NCBI GenBank assembly: GCA_039028615.1
Contig: JBCCHT010000043.1
Location: forward strand, 1-64,000
Origin: Myxococcota bacterium
Lineage (GTDB): Bacteria; Myxococcota_A; Polyangia; Nannocystales; Nannocystaceae
Direction: 5' to 3'
Length of the DNA stretch: 64,000 bases
Shown: positions 29,499 to 44,290 of the stretch, piece after piece
Layout of the letters: each line of letters starts with the position of its first letter
Position numbering within the stretch: position 1 is the stretch's first letter
Translations under genes and position numbers: made by a program
The notes under the pieces: generated by a model
What the model was told of the DNA's origin: nothing
The model's database searches: none
What the model saw: the letters and a program-made list of their open reading frames with translations, nothing else

Positions 29499-29578
29499 TG
29501 GTGCCTCGGGACGGACTCGAACCGCCGACGCCCACAGGTTCAGTGTGGCGCTCTTGATTTCCACTGAGCTACCGAGGC
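29499..29578 (-). tRNA. tRNA-Phe(GAA), atypical (C37, 12-nt D-loop), CCA encoded
   Basis: GCCTCGG TA GCTC AGTGGAAATCAA GAGC G CCACA CTGAACC TGTGG GCGTC GGCGG TTCGAGT CCGTC CCGAGGC A CCA. Confidence 0.85.
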
Positions 29579-29660
29579 GAGTGTGACCGGGTGCGGCCCG
29601 ACCTCGTTCGTCAGGAACGAGAGCCGGGCGAGCCGAAACACTCGCCGCCACAACCATCAG

Positions 29661-29733
29661 TGCCAGGGGTGGGATTCGAACCCACGATCGTCGCTTCATG
29701 AGAGCGCTGCCTTGACCACTCGGCCACCCTGGC
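29661..29733 (-). tRNA. tRNA(CAT), probably elongator Met (Ile2 not excluded), atypical G37
   Basis: GCCAGGG TG GCC GAGTGGTCAA GGC A GCGCT CTCATGA AGCGA CGATC GTGGG TTCGAAT CCCAC CCCTGGC A. Confidence 0.87.
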
Positions 29734-29929
29734 AGAGGGGAGCGAGGCAGTGCGCATGAGTTCGTCGTGGGTCGTGATGCGTTGAAGTCGTAGAGTCATC
29801 GTTCGTTCTCTCGGGTGGTGCCGGGCCAACGAGGTGCCGGCCGGCGAACACGGAGCCATGACCCGTGAAGAGCCCCTTACGGGTGCTCGACCATCAATGA
29901 AATGACCAATGGAGTTGCACCCGAAACGC

Positions 29930-30007
29930 TCAACACGTGCCGAACATGAAGCCCATGCCGAACATTCGCTCGGTGTTCATGGGGGTCGTCGTCGTGAAGC
30001 GTTCCAT
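29930..30007 (-). CDS. Putative Met/Phe-rich leader peptide MERFTTTTPMNTERMFGMGFMFGTC
   Basis: Manual translation; AAGG RBS; 5 ATG and 4 TTC codons in 25; lies between the promoter and tRNA-Met/tRNA-Phe. Confidence 0.6.
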   Translation of the reverse strand: MERFTTTTPMNTERMFGMGFMFGTC

Positions 30008-30049
30008 GATGCAACCTTGGTTGCCCGTCGGTTCGACGGAGGTTCATTT

Positions 30050-30078
30050 TGTTTACGGCGCAGATCCGAGGTGGTCAA
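30050..30078 (-). promoter_or_regulatory. Sigma70-like promoter of the Met/Phe tRNA unit
   Basis: TTGACC-17 nt-TAAACA. Confidence 0.5.
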
Positions 30079-32020: not shown

Positions 32021-33115
32021 ATGGAGCTGTCGACCGCCCACGGGCCCCTGCCCGCCCCTTGCTACATCCCCGACGCGACCCGCGGGTTCGTGCGCTCCGT
32101 CGACGCCAGCGACCTCGAGGCGGTGGGCATCCCCGCGTTGATGATCAACGCGTACCACCTCATGACGCGGCCCGGCATTCGGGTAGTGCAACGGCTGGGT
32201 GGGCTGCATCGCTTCGCGGGATGGTCGGGGCCGATCGTCACCGACTCGGGCGGCTTTCAGGTGTTCTCGCTGATCCGGCAGAACCCCAAGCACGGACAGA
32301 TTCGCGACAACGAGATCGTCTTCCGCCCTCCCGACGGCAAGGACAAGCTCATCCTCACCCCCGAGAAGGTCGTGCAGACCCAGTTCCGGCTGGGCGCCGA
32401 CGTGATGGTCGCCCTCGACGACTGCACCGGACCCGAAGCGCCTGCCGACGAGCAGCGCCGGGCCGTCGATCGCACCGTGGCCTGGGCCCGACGCGCGCTC
32501 GTGGAGTTCAATCGTCAGCTTGCCCAGCGTCGCAGCAAAGACATTCCCCCGACCCTGGTCGCCCCGATTCAAGGCGGCAACGATCCCGCGCTACGACGAG
32601 ACTGCGCCAACGCCCTGCTCGATGCCGGCCTCACCACCTTTGGCTTCGGCGGCTGGCCCCTCGACGAGCACGGTGCGCTGCAGCTCGACATGTTCCAGGT
32701 GCTGCACGAGCTGCTGCCCATGACCACGCCTCTGTTCGCGCTGGGCGTGGGCAAGCCCGAGCACCTCACCGCCATCACGGCGCTGGGTCGACCCGCCGTG
32801 TTCGACAGCAGCCTGCCCACCCGCGATGCTCGACACCATCGCCTCTACCGCTTCCGCGACGCGCTGCCCGAGGGGCCGCTGACCTCGGGCCGAGACTTCT
32901 TCGAACGGCTGTACATCCTCGACAAGAAGCACGCGACCGCCGACGAGCCGATCTCGCCGCATTGCGATGCGTTGTGTTGTCGCCGCTATAGCCGGGGTTA
33001 TCTGCACCACCTGTTCAAGTGCGAAGACCCTCTGGCCAAGCGCCTGGCGACGCTGCACAACCTGCGCTTTTACACGCAGCTGGCGGCCCATCTGCAAGAG
33101 CACGGCGCTCGCTGA
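32021..33115 (+). CDS. tgt: tRNA-guanine transglycosylase family protein (divergent)
   Basis: NAYHL..RPG, TDSGGFQ, LDDC, IQGG, GVG, FDSSLPTRDARH and HNL. Confidence 0.9.
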   Translation: MELSTAHGPLPAPCYIPDATRGFVRSVDASDLEAVGIPALMINAYHLMTRPGIRVVQRLGGLHRFAGWSGPIVTDSGGFQVFSLIRQNPKHGQIRDNEIVFRPPDGKDKLILTPEKVVQTQFRLGADVMVALDDCTGPEAPADEQRRAVDRTVAWARRALVEFNRQLAQRRSKDIPPTLVAPIQGGNDPALRRDCANALLDAGLTTFGFGGWPLDEHGALQLDMFQVLHELLPMTTPLFALGVGKPEHLTAITALGRPAVFDSSLPTRDARHHRLYRFRDALPEGPLTSGRDFFERLYILDKKHATADEPISPHCDALCCRRYSRGYLHHLFKCEDPLAKRLATLHNLRFYTQLAAHLQEHGAR

Positions 33116-35962: not shown

Positions 35963-37420
35963 CTAGGGGACTTCGTCGATGCCGGGGTAGCCGGGGGCCT
36001 CCTGCGGGCGGGGATCGCCGTCGACGTCGAAGAGCGGATCGCCCTCGTCCCAGTCGGCGATGTCGGCGAAGACGCTCTGGCCCTCCGCGCTGAGGTGGAA
36101 GTCGCCCGCGGGGGCGTCGACGAACCAATCCGAGTCGAAGATGCCGACGGACTGACCTGCGCCCAGGCCCCCGTCGACGGCGTTGTCGGCGAAGGTGAGC
36201 GAGCACCAGGAGCTGAACGAACCCGGGTAGGCGCCGACGATGATGCTGTTGCGGATCTCTCCGCCCCCGCTGCTGCCGTCACAGCTCACGGTGTTGTGAT
36301 TGCCCGCGATGGTGGAGTGGTACAGCCGCAGCTCACCGCTCTCGATGGAGACGGCGGTGTCGGAGCCAGGGCCGATGCTGCTGTTGGTGGCCTGGAACAT
36401 ACCGTCACCGATGATGCGGATGGCGACGCTCTCCGGCTCGGCGGCGGTGAAGCGGCTACGCCGGGCGTAGGTGTCGCAATCGGTGTCGATCGAGGTGGAG
36501 TAGCCGTTGATGGTGATGTCGTCCATCCACAGCAGGTTTCCGTGGCGACACTGGATGGCGCGGAAGGGGCCGTCGTCGAGGGCGACCTCGGACAGGTAGA
36601 GAATGCGCTGGGTGTCCTCGCTGGTGAGGACGAACAGATTGGTGGCGCCGCCCGTGATGACGGTGCCCGGCTGCCCGATCACCGCGACTTCACCCGCGAC
36701 CTGCAGCGTTCCGTTGATTTCGTAGACCCCCGACGCGAGGCGGATGACCCGCTGCGAGCCGATGCCCAGCTCGCTCAGCGCGGTCTCGAGCTCGTCGGCG
36801 GTGGAGGCATCGACGACGTCGCCGGGGTCGAAGCAGGAGCCCTGCTCGGGGCCCAGCAAGTGGCAGGCGGAGTCGGGACAGTCGGAATGCTCGGTGCACG
36901 CGGCACAGCCGAGACCGGGATCGCAGACCGGAGTGTCGCCCGAGCAGCTGTCGGCCACACAGGCGACACACTGACCTTCGGCACCGCACAGGGGCGCGAG
37001 CGGGTCGTCGTCGGCACACAGCTGGTCGGGCGCGTCGGCGTCGGAGCAAGGACCGCAGGCACCCTCGATGCAGAAGGCTCCGGCGTCGCAGTCGGCGTGG
37101 CCCTCACACTCGGGGGCGGGACCATCGTCGGTGTCGCCGGGCTCGGGGCCATCGGTGTTCCCGTCGGCCCCATCGGCGGAAGGTTGGTCGGTGTCGACCC
37201 CCGGTTCGGGGGTGCCGTCGGTGTCGATGGCGCTCGTGTCGGGGCTGGCGGCCGAGGTGGATCCCTCACCGTCGTCGCTGTCGAGCGGCGACATCTCGGG
37301 GTTGAAGCACGCGGTGGCACCGAGCAAGGCGAGCAACCCGACCGCGGACGACACGGCACCCCGCGAGCGACGAACGGGGAAACAAACAGTGTTATCGGGC
37401 GAACTATTGATGTCGAACAT
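35963..37420 (-). CDS. Cys-rich lipoprotein with probable beta-helix C-terminal domain
   Basis: Lipobox ATAC; acidic linker; Cys repeats; STIAGN/NSII and GDFHL..PGIDE motifs; start may be downstream. Confidence 0.8.
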   Translation of the reverse strand: MFDINSSPDNTVCFPVRRSRGAVSSAVGLLALLGATACFNPEMSPLDSDDGEGSTSAASPDTSAIDTDGTPEPGVDTDQPSADGADGNTDGPEPGDTDDGPAPECEGHADCDAGAFCIEGACGPCSDADAPDQLCADDDPLAPLCGAEGQCVACVADSCSGDTPVCDPGLGCAACTEHSDCPDSACHLLGPEQGSCFDPGDVVDASTADELETALSELGIGSQRVIRLASGVYEINGTLQVAGEVAVIGQPGTVITGGATNLFVLTSEDTQRILYLSEVALDDGPFRAIQCRHGNLLWMDDITINGYSTSIDTDCDTYARRSRFTAAEPESVAIRIIGDGMFQATNSSIGPGSDTAVSIESGELRLYHSTIAGNHNTVSCDGSSGGGEIRNSIIVGAYPGSFSSWCSLTFADNAVDGGLGAGQSVGIFDSDWFVDAPAGDFHLSAEGQSVFADIADWDEGDPLFDVDGDPRPQEAPGYPGIDEVP

Positions 37421-37443
37421 TCGAAGGGTCCTGAGCGAGAAAG

Positions 37444-37520
37444 TGGTACCTGGGGAGGGATTCGAACCCCCAACCTCCCGGGTCTGAGCCGGTCGCCTCT
37501 ACCAATTGGGCTACCCAGGC
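37444..37520 (-). tRNA. tRNA-Leu(CAG), atypical: short variable loop, A37, G1.U72; CCA encoded
   Basis: GCCTGGG TA GCC CAATTGGTAGA GGC G ACCGG CTCAGAC CCGGG AGGTT GGGGG TTCGAAT CCCTC CCCAGGT A CCA. Confidence 0.87.
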
Positions 37521-37565
37521 ATAGGCGTTCCCATCGGGGAACGTGGACGACTTTTTTTCTGCCAG

Positions 37566-37639
37566 CGCGGCGTCGAGGATTCGAACCTCGGGCCTCCCGA
37601 TTCGTAGTCGGGTGCTCTATCCAGCTGAGCTAACGCCGC
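37566..37639 (-). tRNA. tRNA-Arg(ACG)
   Basis: GCGGCGT TA GCTC AGCTGGATA GAGC A CCCGA CTACGAA TCGGG AGGCC CGAGG TTCGAAT CCTCG ACGCCGC G. Confidence 0.95.
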
Positions 37640-37771
37640 ATGTCGTCACGGCGTGCGCACGCACGAACCGCGACCACGCGTCATCACCCGGCGAGCCTCG
37701 CAGGACCTACGAGACCACCGTTGGCAGAGCAACGTCGTCTTGGTTTTGGACTGACTCGCCCAACTGGCGAG

Positions 37772-37885
37772 TTACGCGACGCGAAGAAGGCGTCGACCAC
37801 CCACGCGCAGGCGCAAGCGCAGCCGACCGCCCAGCGTACGCTGGCTGTCTCGCCGCAAGCTCCGTGCCTGAACCTTCGTGGTCAT
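37772..37885 (-). CDS. Putative Arg/Leu-rich leader peptide MTTKVQARSLRRDSQRTLGGRLRLRLRVGGRRLLRVA
   Basis: Manual translation; 11 Arg and 7 Leu in 37 aa; hairpin 37754-37772 at the stop; upstream of tRNA-Arg/tRNA-Leu. In-frame ATGs also at 37906 and 37915. Confidence 0.55.
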   Translation of the reverse strand: MTTKVQARSLRRDSQRTLGGRLRLRLRVGGRRLLRVA

Positions 37886-37892
37886 GGTCTGC

Positions 37893-37923
37893 TTGCTATG
37901 CGGCATGGATCCCATACCGTCAA
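37893..37923 (-). promoter_or_regulatory. Sigma70-like promoter of the Arg/Leu tRNA unit
   Basis: T-tract followed by TTGACG (37923-37918), then a weak -10 (CATAGC/TAGCAA) 17-19 nt downstream. Confidence 0.4.
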
Positions 37924-37952
37924 GAAAAAATCTTCGACTGGTTTCGCCGTCT

Positions 37953-38732
37953 CTAGGACTGCGCCGCTTTGCGGTCGCGCTTGCGGAGCTTCCGTCGCGG
38001 CTTGTCGCGCTCGGTCTCGCTGCCCTCGGTGGGGGCGGGTGGCCCCGCGCCTTCGGGTGCCCCCTCGATCACCAGCACGTACTCACCCCGCAGCTTCGTG
38101 TCGCCCAGCCCCTCGAGCAAACTCGACAAGGTGCCACGCTGGACCTGCTCGAACTTCTTGGTGAGGTCGTTGGCCAGCGCGGCCGGGCGATCGCCATAGA
38201 CCTCGAGCGCGTCGCGAAGCAACGCCTCCACCCGGTAAGGGCTCTCGTAGAAGAGCAAGGTGTGCGGCGAGTACTGGTCGACCTCCAAGAAGCGCTTGCG
38301 CTTGCCCGACTTGCGCGGCGCAAACCCGCGGAAGGTGAACGAGTGTAGCGGCAGGCCGCTGAGCACCAGCGCCATGACGAACGCCGAAGGCCCCGGGATC
38401 ATCGTGACCTCGAGCCCCTCTTCGTGACACAGGCGCACGAGTGAGAAGCCGGGGTCGGCGATGCCGGGCGTGCCCGCGTCGGAGACCAGCGCGACGTCTC
38501 GACCTTCGTGGAGCAGCCGAATGATCTTCCCGCCTACCCGAGACTCGTTGTGCTCGTGGAAGGGCATCTGCCGCGCCTTGATCTCGTGCCGCGTCAGGAG
38601 CTTGGCCGTGTGCCGCGTGTCCTCGCTCGCCACGATGTCGACGCTTCGAAGCACCTCGATCGCGCGGAGCGAGATGTCCTCGAGATGACCGATGGGCGTG
38701 GCGACGACGTAGAGCATCGACCTGGCGAGCAT
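37953..38732 (-). CDS. rsmI: 16S rRNA (cytidine1402-2'-O)-methyltransferase
   Basis: [38 protein letters not shown] and YESPYR. Confidence 0.95.
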
Positions 38733-38976
38733 TGGCCAGCCGGGCCGCGTTGGCAACTGCTCGGACGAACCGGGTCCCCACTCGCGCTCGGCATCGTGCA
38801 GCACGCAATCTCGCCCCCGGCGAGGCGCTCGCGGGTCGCAAAGCCATGGCAACGACTGTCGCCACGCAAACTTTCTCGACATTTCGAGTGAGAGGACGAG
38901 GGCAGCGTGGGAACTACAAGGTCGGTCGCGAGCAATGAGGCGACCACACAACGACCGTATTCGATCGGACCCCCAA

Positions 38977-40212
38977 ATGCTCATGCTCCCCTCCAATCAG
39001 CTCCTTCGCCCCCTCTTTGCCTGCCTGATGGTCAGCACCTGCGTATCCGCGTGCGACGAAGGCGGCGACTTCAACGATGACGAGACCGCACTCGACGACG
39101 TGACGTTGCGCTCGGCCCAGGCTTGCGGAAGCGACATCCCCGTGACCTCGAGCCAGTGGCGTATTCGCAACGCGAGCGTCCAGACCCACTCCGGACAGTG
39201 GGTCATCCGCGAGATGGACTTCTGCGCGGACGCGGCCTGCACCGAGACCCTGACCGGCACCGCGTTCGATAGCGGGGCCTCCGAGAGCTGGAGCGTGGCG
39301 GCCAACGCCTTCGACGGCGATGCCGGCACCATGTGGAAGACCTTCGACACCAACGTCGTGGGACAGTCGTGGATCGGCCTGGAGCTGGACAGCCCCGCCG
39401 CGGTGGCGGGCCTCCGCATTCAGACCGACAACGTCGTCTACTCGGTCGACTCGATCGACGTGGAGTACCTCGACGAGGGCAGCGGCGAGTGGATCACCGC
39501 CGACACCCTCACCGACGTCCCGGCCGGCACCGAGCTCACCTACGAGATCGACGGCCCCGTGATGGACATTCCCTGCGACGTCGAGGTCGACGATCAGGCC
39601 ACGGTCATCATGCCCGGAACCGAGCTGACCGGGCTGTCCGCGGACACGGGCGAGGTGCTCTACTACGCGGTGGTGAACCCGGGACCGGACTTCCTCGTCG
39701 AGATCACCGGGGGCCCCGGCGACGCAGATCTGTACCTGCGATACGGCGAGCTACCCACGGCGTCGGAATACGATTGCCGGCCCTACAAGTGGGGCAACGG
39801 AGAGTCCTGCGAGGTCGCGCAGCCGTCCGGCGGCGTCTACTACATCATGCTGCGCGCCTACGCGAGCTTCAGCGACTTGTCGCTGATCGTCAGCGACGCC
39901 GGGCCCGTCGCGCCCACGCCGGTGGTCGAGGCCGATCTGTCCGCCGCCACGGGCGAGTGGCTCCGCTACGAGTTCGCCGTGCCGATCGGAGCCAGCAATG
40001 CGACCTTTGAGATCGACGGAGGCAGCGGGGACGGAGACATGTACATCCGCTACGGCGAGCAACCCACGGCCACCGAATACGACCACCGCCCCTACAAGTG
40101 GGGCAATGGCGAGACCGTCTCCATCGCGGACCCGCAGGCGGGCGTCTACTACGTCGGCATTCGTTCCTACGCGGCGTTCGCCGGCATGACCCTGACGATG
40201 AGCTACGAGTAG
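38977..40212 (+). CDS. Lipoprotein with a discoidin/F5-8-like domain and two PPC (pre-peptidase C-terminal) domains
   Basis: VSAC lipobox; [11 protein letters not shown]; two copies of GGxGDxDxYxRYGxxPT..[12 protein letters not shown]. Confidence 0.85.
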
Positions 40213-42559: not shown

Positions 42560-44290
42560 CTACTTGGGGGCGTCCACCAAGCGGAACAGCGGGTTGACGG
42601 TCAGTTCGACCATGAGTGCTTTGTAGTTGTAGTCGGTCTCGGAGAAGCTCTCGTCCAGGGTGGCGATGCCGGCGGCCTGGTCGAGGCCGGGGTCGTGGCC
42701 CAGCGTGCTGCGGTAGAGATTCCGAACGACGCAGTTCGGAACCCGCGGGTCGTTGCGGATGAGCCCGGCGAGGTCGGCCGCGCCGCCGAAGCTACCCACG
42801 CCGCCCACCTCACCCGAGGAGTCGATGGGAAGCCCGTTGTCGAGCTGTCGGAAGGCACCGATCGCACTGTAGCGCTCGAACGCGAAGCCGATGGGATCCA
42901 TGAGCGCATGGCAGGCCGCACAGCTGTCGTCCTGGTTGTGCTCGTTCTCCAGCCACTCGCGCAGGGTCTGGCCCTCCATCGGTGCCGGCGGCATGACCTC
43001 CACATCGGGCGGCGGCGGCAGGATGTCGGTGCACAGCAGCGTCTCCTGCACGAAGAGCCCGCGTCGCGTGGGCGAGTTGATGTCGGGGTGAGAGAAGACG
43101 CTGAGGAACGCGGGGTGCGTCAGGAAGCCCGCGCGCTGCTGGCCTTCGGGGAAGGACACGAGCTGCCACGGGAACTCGGGTGGATCCATCCCGTACAGCT
43201 GAGCGAGGTCGTCGTTCACGAACGTGTAGTTCGCGTCGAAGATGCCCAGGAAGTTGCTCTCCTCTTCGAAGACCACGTTCTGGATGAGCAAGAGCGTCTC
43301 TTGCCGCATCGCCGCCGCGAGGTCGGGGTTGAAGGTGGGGAACAGCTCGGCGTCCTTGCCCTTGTTCTCCAGCTCGCGGAGCTTGTAAAGCTCGTCGTAG
43401 AACTCGGCGAGACGGGTGCGGGCTTCCGGCCGCGTGAGCATGTCTTCGGCGACCGCCCGAATTTGGCCGTCCTCCGACAGCTGCCCCGACTCGGCCGTGT
43501 CCAGCGTCCCCCCGTCGGGCGTATGACCCAGCAGGAAGAACGACAGGCGCGACGCCATCTCGTAGTCGGTGAGAACGCGGTGCTCTCCGTCTTCGGTCTC
43601 CTCGCCAACCTCCACCACATACAGGAAGTTGGGCGACTGGAAGATGGTGCCCACGAGGTACTTGATACCGGTGAGGAAGTCGTTGCCTCCCCATTCGTAG
43701 GCGGCGTTGGCGATCTCGACGACGTCGGCGATCTCCTCGTCGGTCAGCGGTCGACGCCACGCCATGCGCCCCAGCTCGGCGGCGACCGTGTCGTAGCAGG
43801 AGGGGTCCTGACCATCTGCCACGCAAGGCACGAGGGCGTTGAGCGAGGCCGGCTCGTTCATCACCGCGGTACCCATCGCCAGCGCCGAACTCTCGTACAG
43901 CTCGATGTCGATGGGCGTCAGCGGCTCCTCGTTGACGGTCTGCGAGTCGAAAGTGCCCAGCTCGGGCAGCGGAGGCGGGTTGGCGGCTTCGGCAACCTCG
44001 GCTCCGAGGATGACCTCTACGCTCGCGACGTACTGATCGGGTGTCAGGCGACGAATGCCGCCCGGTGGCGGGAGCACATTCGCGTCGCCCCCCGTGTTGG
44101 TACCGTCGGTTCCGGTCTCGTCTGCCGTGCCATCGACACCGTCGGTCCCCCCCGCGGTGCCGGTCCCGCTTTCGGTGCCACCTGCTCCTCCCCCGCCGTC
44201 ATCACCACAACCAGTGGCAGGTACGGCTAGCGCGAGGAGACATAACGGCAGAGTCAGTATGTGACTGGAACGGAGCGGAAGCGTTTTCAT
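42560..44290 (-). CDS. DUF1592/DUF1588-type lipoprotein with CxxCH
   Basis: IRRLT..Y, QSPNFLY, YEMASRLSFFL, SPTRRG and CAACHALMDPIGFAFE. Confidence 0.9.
   Translation of the reverse strand: MKTLPLRSSHILTLPLCLLALAVPATGCGDDGGGGAGGTESGTGTAGGTDGVDGTADETGTDGTNTGGDANVLPPPGGIRRLTPDQYVASVEVILGAEVAEAANPPPLPELGTFDSQTVNEEPLTPIDIELYESSALAMGTAVMNEPASLNALVPCVADGQDPSCYDTVAAELGRMAWRRPLTDEEIADVVEIANAAYEWGGNDFLTGIKYLVGTIFQSPNFLYVVEVGEETEDGEHRVLTDYEMASRLSFFLLGHTPDGGTLDTAESGQLSEDGQIRAVAEDMLTRPEARTRLAEFYDELYKLRELENKGKDAELFPTFNPDLAAAMRQETLLLIQNVVFEEESNFLGIFDANYTFVNDDLAQLYGMDPPEFPWQLVSFPEGQQRAGFLTHPAFLSVFSHPDINSPTRRGLFVQETLLCTDILPPPPDVEVMPPAPMEGQTLREWLENEHNQDDSCAACHALMDPIGFAFERYSAIGAFRQLDNGLPIDSSGEVGGVGSFGGAADLAGLIRNDPRVPNCVVRNLYRSTLGHDPGLDQAAGIATLDESFSETDYNYKALMVELTVNPLFRLVDAPK

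Follow-up and report, generated by a model that had tools for sequence, protein, structure and literature searches.

A conserved short open reading frame matched in its codons to the spare tRNA-Arg and tRNA-Leu genes behind it in Nannocystaceae

The Myxococcota bacterium of the family Nannocystaceae that is represented by assembly GCA_039028615.1 has a genome of 12.3 Mb with 68% GC, which is 96.7% complete. We analyzed positions 1 to 64,000 of its contig JBCCHT010000043.1, and this whole stretch of 64,000 nucleotides is called the window here. On its minus strand a 37-codon open reading frame (ORF) rich in Arg and Leu codons precedes second copies of the genes for tRNA-Arg(ACG) and tRNA-Leu(CAG). 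This Arg/Leu module is real, it is conserved in relatives, and it is part of a larger, unreported system of small tRNA cassettes. The ORF is very probably a translated regulatory leader matched to its own tRNAs, and it is fairly probable that a ribosome stalled on the cognate codons permits transcriptional read-through into the spare tRNA genes. A preliminary description had proposed a cognate-codon leader controlling the two tRNA genes, and sequence comparison within the genome and among its relatives supports this proposal.

Anatomy and conservation of the Arg/Leu module

On the minus strand an rsmI-like gene is followed by the boxes TTGACG and CATAGC, the 37-codon ORF, a hairpin that we named H1, a spacer, tRNA-Arg(ACG) and tRNA-Leu(CAG). 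The predicted -10-like box CATAGC (37895..37900) lies 17 nt 3' of the predicted -35 box TTGACG (37918..37923), and the ATG of the ORF (37772..37885, 37 codons plus TAA) is found at 37885, 38 nt past the start of TTGACG at 37923. The putative sensor codons for Arg and Leu are located in the 3' half. A recount agrees with the numbers given before, as the ORF encodes 11 Arg and 7 Leu and therefore 18 of 37 residues, and 12 of its last 17 codons are for Arg or Leu, while the genome composition lets expect 6.3 Arg plus Leu in 36 codons (binomial P 8e-6). The preliminary description had cautioned that Arg-rich ORFs are often spurious at high GC. Arg-rich frames are indeed common at 68% GC, but among the 13,280 ATG ORFs of 30-45 aa in this genome just 20 equal the share of 18/37 and 4 equal the 12 of the last 17. 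The hairpin described as overlapping the TAA is found there as well, since the 7-bp H1 (37754..37772) begins at the last base of the stop codon, with its 5' arm on the stop and no U tract 3' of it. A long RNA stem (37799..37883) lies within the ORF itself. Behind H1, a structured spacer of 114 nt (37640..37753), which is not conserved in sequence and is 107-250 nt long in relatives, leads to tRNA-Arg(ACG) (37565..37639) and to the 77-nt tRNA-Leu(CAG) (37444..37520), both called by ARAGORN and Rfam. The 37-aa peptide has no match in Pfam, the sole protein-family or homolog search made on it, and Rfam has no family that matches the leaders of the window and of five related loci.

The module with ORF, promoter and stop-overlapping hairpin recurs in front of Arg/Leu tRNA cassettes in five other Nannocystaceae genomes (G002, G003, G005, G083 and, with a replaced 5' end, G079) and on four metagenome contigs (L091, L092, L096, L100). 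Searching 41 genomes at the DNA level gave matches to the leader region in G002, G003 and G004 and to the tRNAs in G005. G079 and G083 were found via the hairpin pattern, and a metagenome scan gave 11 loci, namely the four with tRNA cassettes and seven chance matches. A sequence model built from 13 leaders gave 13 matches, spread over 8 of the 73 family genomes. Eleven of them, in seven genomes, are strong (10 belong to the training set) and two are weak and represent noise; six of the strong matches precede Arg/Leu tRNAs, four a second EF-Tu gene and one Pro tRNAs. Chance matches were set aside throughout (3 of 6 loci, 7 of 11 metagenome loci, 2 of 13 sequence-model matches, 1 of 11 new matches of the RNA model described below). 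The Arg/Leu leader class is narrow and comprises two genera among those searched. A phylum-wide search with the mixed cassette gave single-tRNA matches, nearly all to one query position, and is uninformative on the range, while a class-wide search with the Leu tRNAs, which scored only two candidates per genome, found seven genomes outside the family that carry longer or mixed arrays. No match to the short-arm tRNA-Leu pattern was found in viral contigs, and in phage and plasmid records the matches are confined to the cassette tRNAs. As a genome-wide motif H1 was rejected, as it has one exact copy in the genome and a loose pattern gave mostly chance matches in the 73 genomes.

In nine aligned leaders the sequence CTTGACG, the CATA of the -10-like box, the 11-nt gap to the ATG and the hairpin are all invariant (9/9), and the bases around the promoter boxes vary between relatives. 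Most leaders have a further in-frame ATG 21 nt upstream, but it lies between the promoter boxes. The stop codons TAA, TGA and TAG interchange, and length changes comprise whole codons. Among five leaders of 37 codons the synonymous divergence is 0.19-0.37 and the non-synonymous divergence 0.14-0.32 (pN ~ pS), which argues that the translation rather than the peptide matters. Judged from these alignments, the frame is kept, as the preliminary description had set beforehand as a check, and the peptide sequence is not. In loci L066 and L092 (G079), the promoter and the first codons of the leader are replaced by the start of a divergent neighbor gene, which is either a natural deletion or an assembly fault. 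Read-through from rsmI, which had been considered as the competing source of the tRNAs, was rejected and is unneeded because the cassette has its own conserved promoter next to upstream genes that differ among relatives (Mur ligase, M20 peptidase, transglutaminase-like, ABC1 kinase). The rsmI-like gene itself (37953..38732, minus strand), a member of the tetrapyrrole-methylase family (Pfam PF00590) whose name is that of the preliminary description, lies outside the module and does not occur at this place in those relatives that were examined.

Leader codons and downstream tRNAs

A natural swap of codons is found in two paralogous cassettes of one metagenome. The leader of the Leu-only cassette L100, with four Leu tRNAs, has 2 Arg and 8 Leu in its last 20 codons, whereas that of the Arg-only cassette L091, with five Arg tRNAs, has 8 Arg and 3 Leu. 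Seven mixed Arg/Leu cassettes have 5-9 Arg and 5-7 Leu in the 18-22 codons after a conserved mid-point. In eight pooled leaders CTT occurs 11 times (1.5 expected) and CTC four times (20.8 expected).

The Arg/Leu cassette is one of eight such cassettes in the genome. ARAGORN gave 86 tRNA calls, from which a filter removed 16 (12 spurious by eye and four real, of which a tRNA-Asp was restored by hand). Among the resulting 45 tRNA clusters, eight have a promoter followed by an ORF of 15-70 codons, 14 lack an ORF and have a promoter 40-143 nt upstream, and 23 have no promoter match. The eight cassettes encode tRNAs for Ser/Tyr, Cys/Gln, Thr/Phe/Asn/Lys, Asp/His, Ser/Ala/Trp/Cys/Val/Ile, Pro, Met/Phe and Arg/Leu and thus cover 18 amino acids. 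Each contains two to seven tRNAs, the Arg/Leu cassette having two, and all 27 tRNAs duplicate a housekeeping anticodon. The true pairing of leaders and cassettes gives the best codon match of all 40,320 permutations, and seven of the eight leaders are individually enriched in cognate codons (P 0.01 to 8e-7). The parallel that had been drawn to the Met/Phe cassette holds, as its 25-codon leader ORF (29930..30007, minus strand) has 8 of 24 cognate codons with 1.2 expected and precedes second copies of tRNA-Met(CAT) and tRNA-Phe(GAA) (29499..29733, minus strand). The whole Met/Phe cassette (29499-30078) has a promoter and a leader that ends in a Cys-stop inside a conserved helix; its tRNA-Met has G37, and its tRNA-Phe has 80 nt and C37.

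In relatives 51 cassettes, which were found by tRNA similarity, the hairpin pattern or the RNA model, contain 504 cognate residues with 182 expected, and 46 of them exceed expectation; none of 20,000 shuffles was as high. As kin are not independent, this test overstates the match and the single-genome test is the cleaner one. Excluded from the 51 were housekeeping clusters, duplicates, one locus cut short, the partial leader of G079/L092, long arrays, and two Pro cassettes in which EF-Tu separates the leader from the tRNA. Of the five cassettes that fall short of expectation, one is a mis-pick and the other four, all from one genus, are Asp or Asp/Thr cassettes. In Ser cassettes the leader has one to five Tyr codons when a tRNA-Tyr is present (8/8) and none or one when it is missing (6/6). 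Furthermore, an RNA model of the Cys-stop leader class, which contains no tRNA sequence, gave 11 new matches, 10 of them directly before tRNA genes in three further genera, where the cassettes for Lys/Asn show a clear cognate match and those for Thr and Asp a weak one. A homolog of the leader also precedes the second EF-Tu gene in four genomes (G000, which is the genome of the window, G003, G004 and G005). In G000 (C40:88088 onward, L214) this ORF reads through the hairpin, the label EF-Tu being based on recognized sequence only, and in G003 and G005 Pro tRNAs follow the second EF-Tu gene.

The spare tRNAs differ from the housekeeping set in the anticodon loop. Of the 24 spares whose position 36 is G, A, or U, 13 are without the usual modification signal at position 37 (G37 or A37-A38), vs 1 of 34 housekeeping tRNAs (Fisher P 9e-6). 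We take these signals to be those of TrmD, MiaA and the t6A enzymes, and trmD is present in this genome. Both window tRNAs have A37 where their housekeeping twins, located on contig C73 for tRNA-Arg and on contig C46 for the 84-nt tRNA-Leu, have G37. The spare tRNA-Leu(CAG) has a variable loop of only 5 nt and keeps A73 and the pair A15:U48, which are leucine identity elements. It is 0.87 identical to a tRNA-Leu of a myxococcal long array vs 0.73 to its own twin. However, among 22 spares only 7 resemble long-array tRNAs more closely than they do their twins, and therefore an origin of all cassettes from the splitting of one long array was rejected. Other unusual spares are Arg tRNAs with the anticodon GCG and 73-nt tRNA-Ser calls without long variable arm (L076 1307-1382, L091 1752-1825, G000 C27:171191 and 172144). 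A housekeeping tRNA-Leu has the anticodon AAG (G000 C9:93585-93671) and no Leu(GAG) was found in this genome, which suggests inosine at position 34 of a leucine tRNA.

RNA structure, mechanism and rival explanations

Two helices are conserved in the Arg/Leu leaders. RNAalifold of eight leaders pairs the 5' half of the ORF with its Arg/Leu half, and over the whole predicted structure 93% of the cells are paired and 8 of 38 pairs are changed on both sides, with 31-43% in slid controls; since the structure was derived from the same sequences, the pairing statistic is favored. H1 is paired in 91 of 91 cells over 13 sequences, and four of its seven pairs are changed on both sides. As its stem covaries and its loop varies in length, a DNA operator was rejected. 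When the nine Arg/Leu leaders were folded with a masking ribosome, H1 formed in all stalled states of eight leaders, and it is trivially unable to form with a ribosome on the stop codon. A helix opening at the stop codon is found in 28 of 51 leaders vs 30 of 149 control ORFs, and some Cys-stop leaders show an alternative hairpin.

From this arrangement it can be assumed that the sigma-70-type promoter would give a nearly leaderless transcript with a 5' leader of few bases, so that the first ribosome would translate the 37 codons close behind RNA polymerase. With plentiful charged and functional tRNA-Arg and tRNA-Leu the ribosome would quickly be at the stop codon and cover the 5' arm of H1, and the RNA behind would then fold into a state that halts transcription ahead of the tRNA genes. 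A stall on the Arg/Leu run would instead let H1 form and the polymerase read through, supplying spare tRNA-Arg and tRNA-Leu. The stem within the ORF probably refolds behind the ribosome and would limit later rounds of translation. The polymerase-halting step would involve neither a U-tract terminator nor Rho, and with eight matched cassettes the genome could top up its tRNAs amino acid by amino acid. It is most likely that the trigger is loss of or damage to housekeeping tRNAs, i.e., cleavage, missing modification or blocked charging. Plain amino-acid hunger is disfavored, because more tRNA would not cure hunger. An induction upon stalling is supported by the leader homologs at EF-Tu in four genomes, as genes of this class respond to translation stress in Streptomyces (PMC7157823), by the supernumerary tRNA arrays of Anabaena, which translation stress induces as well (PMC8421152), and by a uORF-terminator on contig C24. 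At this locus (G000 C24:74960 downward, L215) a mixed-codon uORF and a canonical U-tract terminator precede a gene for a fusion of a tRNA-binding domain and an RNA ligase. In folding, the terminator forms only with a ribosome masking the stop codon, so that the uORF is likely a translation-stress attenuator of the RNA repair enzyme, and translation-coupled attenuation therefore still looks possible in this genome.

Several results weigh against the regulatory leader and its stalling mechanism. The promoter proposed in the preliminary description is conserved in boxes and spacing in all nine leaders, but a stock sigma-70 scan of 37000-39000 called neither promoter nor terminator, the -10 box CATAGC is weak, and the nearly leaderless mRNA is a prediction from these boxes. 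The caveat that CGG, TTG and CTT are not read by the two local tRNAs is correct, and only 11 of the 18 sensor codons can be read by them, namely eight CGC, CGA and CGT, if A34 is inosine, which lets tRNA-Arg(ACG) read these three, and three CTG; three CGG, two TTG and two CTT are not read. This is largely explained by related cassettes, in which Leu(GAG) and Leu(CAA) are present too, as is Arg(CCG) in two of them, so that the two-tRNA cassette of the window looks reduced. The rule for picking leaders is blind to composition but was written after the eight leaders had been seen, and a looser version mis-picked one leader before the final rule. Cognate codons are not enriched in the Pro leader of this genome (4/37, P 0.2), and eight Thr and/or Asp cassettes found with the RNA model have weak or no enrichment, four being below expectation. 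The masked-ribosome folding of the nine Arg/Leu leaders showed no common alternative helix. In this genome H1 is absent from the naked minimum-energy fold (P 0.01), competes with spacer pairing and reaches 0.73 only under late stall, and in most Ser/Tyr leaders the helix opening at the stop codon is missing. An obvious off-switch is missing as well. A U-tract terminator was found in none of the eight leaders of this genome vs 16 of 40 3' ends of housekeeping tRNA clusters, and the RNA-binding domain of Rho in none of 73 Nannocystaceae genomes, including this one (9 of 14 in the control). Rho-dependent attenuation of the mgtL/tnaC type was therefore rejected; the available text of PMC11347177 lists one Rho-less myxobacterium, Haliangium. 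Three leaders similar to that on C24 precede long arrays in other families, and only two of the four uORF-terminator leaders folded in two states flipped, the one on C24 and one of these three.

The missing terminator and Rho, together with long and highly structured spacers, would also fit an output at the level of RNA processing or stability, in which the same stall and helices decide whether the precursor survives and the tRNAs are excised. The Cys-stop class forms an imperfect helix of 25-35 bp, presumably of the type that is cut by double-strand nucleases. This explanation is unlikely, as RNase J, the obvious nuclease that a ribosome would block, had no match in this genome (0/1, 96.7% complete), so that RNase J protection was rejected; moreover, the helices form the ground state whether or not a ribosome stalls and only a transient co-transcriptional state differs, and tRNA excision is normally fast. 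The opposite sign, as in pyrBI, would make H1 a U-less pause or terminator that a fast ribosome prevents, so that spares are made when Arg and Leu are abundant, e.g., during a prey feast. It would account for H1 in every stalled state of eight of nine leaders and its impossibility with a ribosome on the stop, for the EF-Tu/Pro class in which the ORF often reads right through H1, and for the lack of any other visible terminator. However, H1 has no U tract and the loop would be a positive feedback, the spares are divergent and off the modification signals, which fits a backup rather than bulk supply, and analogous genes are stress-induced according to the available texts of PMC8421152 and PMC7157823. 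We therefore regard this reading as improbable.

A general sensor of translation stress, responding to any stall, e.g., by antibiotics, with the amino-acid match as by-product or relic, appears quite improbable. The leader homolog at EF-Tu has no run of a single amino acid, mixed uORFs go along with the long mixed arrays of other Myxococcota, and the match is weak in the Pro, Thr and Asp cassettes, but the swap between Leu-only and Arg-only leaders, the Tyr codons tracking tRNA-Tyr and the permutation results require selection for the match. General stress may well switch on every cassette in addition, and this is compatible with a matched sensor. Finally, a functional Arg-rich peptide, a structured non-coding RNA with an accidental ORF, or mere chance, each with constitutive tRNAs, is highly improbable. 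The ORF body folds into a covarying stem that could explain much of the sequence conservation, and the frequency of Arg-rich frames noted above is in line with it; against it stand pN ~ pS, the interchange of stops, the whole-codon length changes, a composition that follows the tRNAs across unrelated leader classes, and the missing Pfam match.

Related arrays, known systems and meaning

Next to the module, a Cys/Asp-rich ORF of 485 aa without Pfam match (35963-37420, minus strand) begins 24 nt after tRNA-Leu and could be co-transcribed with it, as no terminator lies between; at the corresponding place no such ORF was seen in the relatives examined. A gene of the queuine tRNA-ribosyltransferase family (32021-33115, plus strand) sits between the two tRNA cassettes of the window, and the ARAGORN call of a tRNA-Ala(AGC) (42671-42756, plus strand) within a long ORF has no Rfam match and is a false call. 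In two other genera (L236, L237, L238, L240, L241, L242), short tandem repeats with units like GGATAGTT or GTTATCGAGTT extend over 100-350 nt behind the last tRNA of Thr or Asp cassettes, with a U-tract terminator 3' in at least three cases; they are possibly a protein-binding RNA array. Long mixed tRNA arrays of other families of the class (L101, L102, L103, L104, L106, L108) have mixed-codon uORFs in front, several contain an HNH-like ORF (motif seen by eye) or an EF-Tu gene, and three have canonical terminators. Genus g17 (L172, L173, L178, L179, L141, L143) has arrays of 7-13 Pro, Leu and Tyr tRNAs with long-arm Leu, which are preceded by a Leu/Pro/Tyr-rich leader of a different class.

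The Arg/Leu leader shares with the classical leader-peptide attenuators trpL, hisL, leuL, and pheM of Escherichia coli the short ORF with cognate codons in its 3' half, an own promoter, and helices that overlap the stop position of the ribosome. Among these, pheM in front of pheST provides a feedback on the supply of charged tRNA. In contrast to the classical attenuators, the genes under control here are those of the tRNAs themselves, no U-tract terminator and no Rho is found, and the leaders read several amino acids per cassette, the whole set covering 18. Since terminator and Rho are missing, we do not classify the module as a classical leader-peptide attenuator. T-box riboswitches also read the charging of a specific tRNA, but sensing here would go through an ORF, and the T-box covariance models of Rfam had no match in the window or five related loci. 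A possible T-box reportedly precedes tRNA genes of Clostridium acetobutylicum. The accessible part of PMC11404447 makes no mention of it.

The purpose of the module, but not its control, is shared with two stress responses. The supernumerary tRNA arrays of Anabaena (trn operon, L-arrays) also lie apart from the housekeeping set next to genes for RNA repair and translation and are induced by translation stress, as the available text of PMC8421152 describes; the trn operon is repressed by TrcR (available texts of PMC8421152 and PMC10272220). It is one long array of many isotypes with a protein repressor on direct repeats, whereas here eight small cassettes would have RNA/ribosome sensors. The terms “leader,” “attenuat” and “T-box” are absent from the accessible text of PMC8421152 (term search), and our cassettes could feature in its supplementary array lists. 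In Streptomyces uORF attenuation tops the WblC response, which induces six tRNA genes, tuf3 and paralogous synthetases (available text of PMC7157823). This is one general sensor acting via a transcription factor, whereas each cassette here would have a codon-matched sensor in cis. Leaderless polycysteine short ORFs of mycobacteria, described in the accessible part of 10.1101/834739 as attenuators forming a dispersed, ribosome-directed “ribulon,” resemble our leaders as leaderless short ORFs with cognate codons in a high-GC bacterium. However, they free a downstream ribosome-binding site, and as tRNA genes have none to sequester, the output here must differ. Leader-peptide control of tRNA genes was not found in a literature search that comprised few subscription papers and mostly titles and openings of abstracts, supplements excluded, and the available text of PMC8421152 states that the mechanisms of differential tRNA gene regulation “remain largely unknown.”

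We tentatively propose that Nannocystaceae possess an amino-acid-resolved surveillance and replacement of tRNAs, in which each tRNA class has a silent backup cassette with its own leader. As part of this still speculative proposal, the leader might detect cleavage by anticodon nucleases that come from prey, rivals or phage defense, loss of modification, or blocked charging, and might thereby switch on spares with differing anticodon loops without a U-tract terminator or Rho. By a direct feedback the cassettes would couple decoding speed to the gene of the limiting tRNA, with many leader classes and natural swaps, and they point to an undescribed mode of attenuation in a Rho-less lineage. Moreover, their natural tRNAs, such as the short-arm tRNA-Leu and those with an altered position 37, may function in the absence of common modifications or evade anticodon nucleases.
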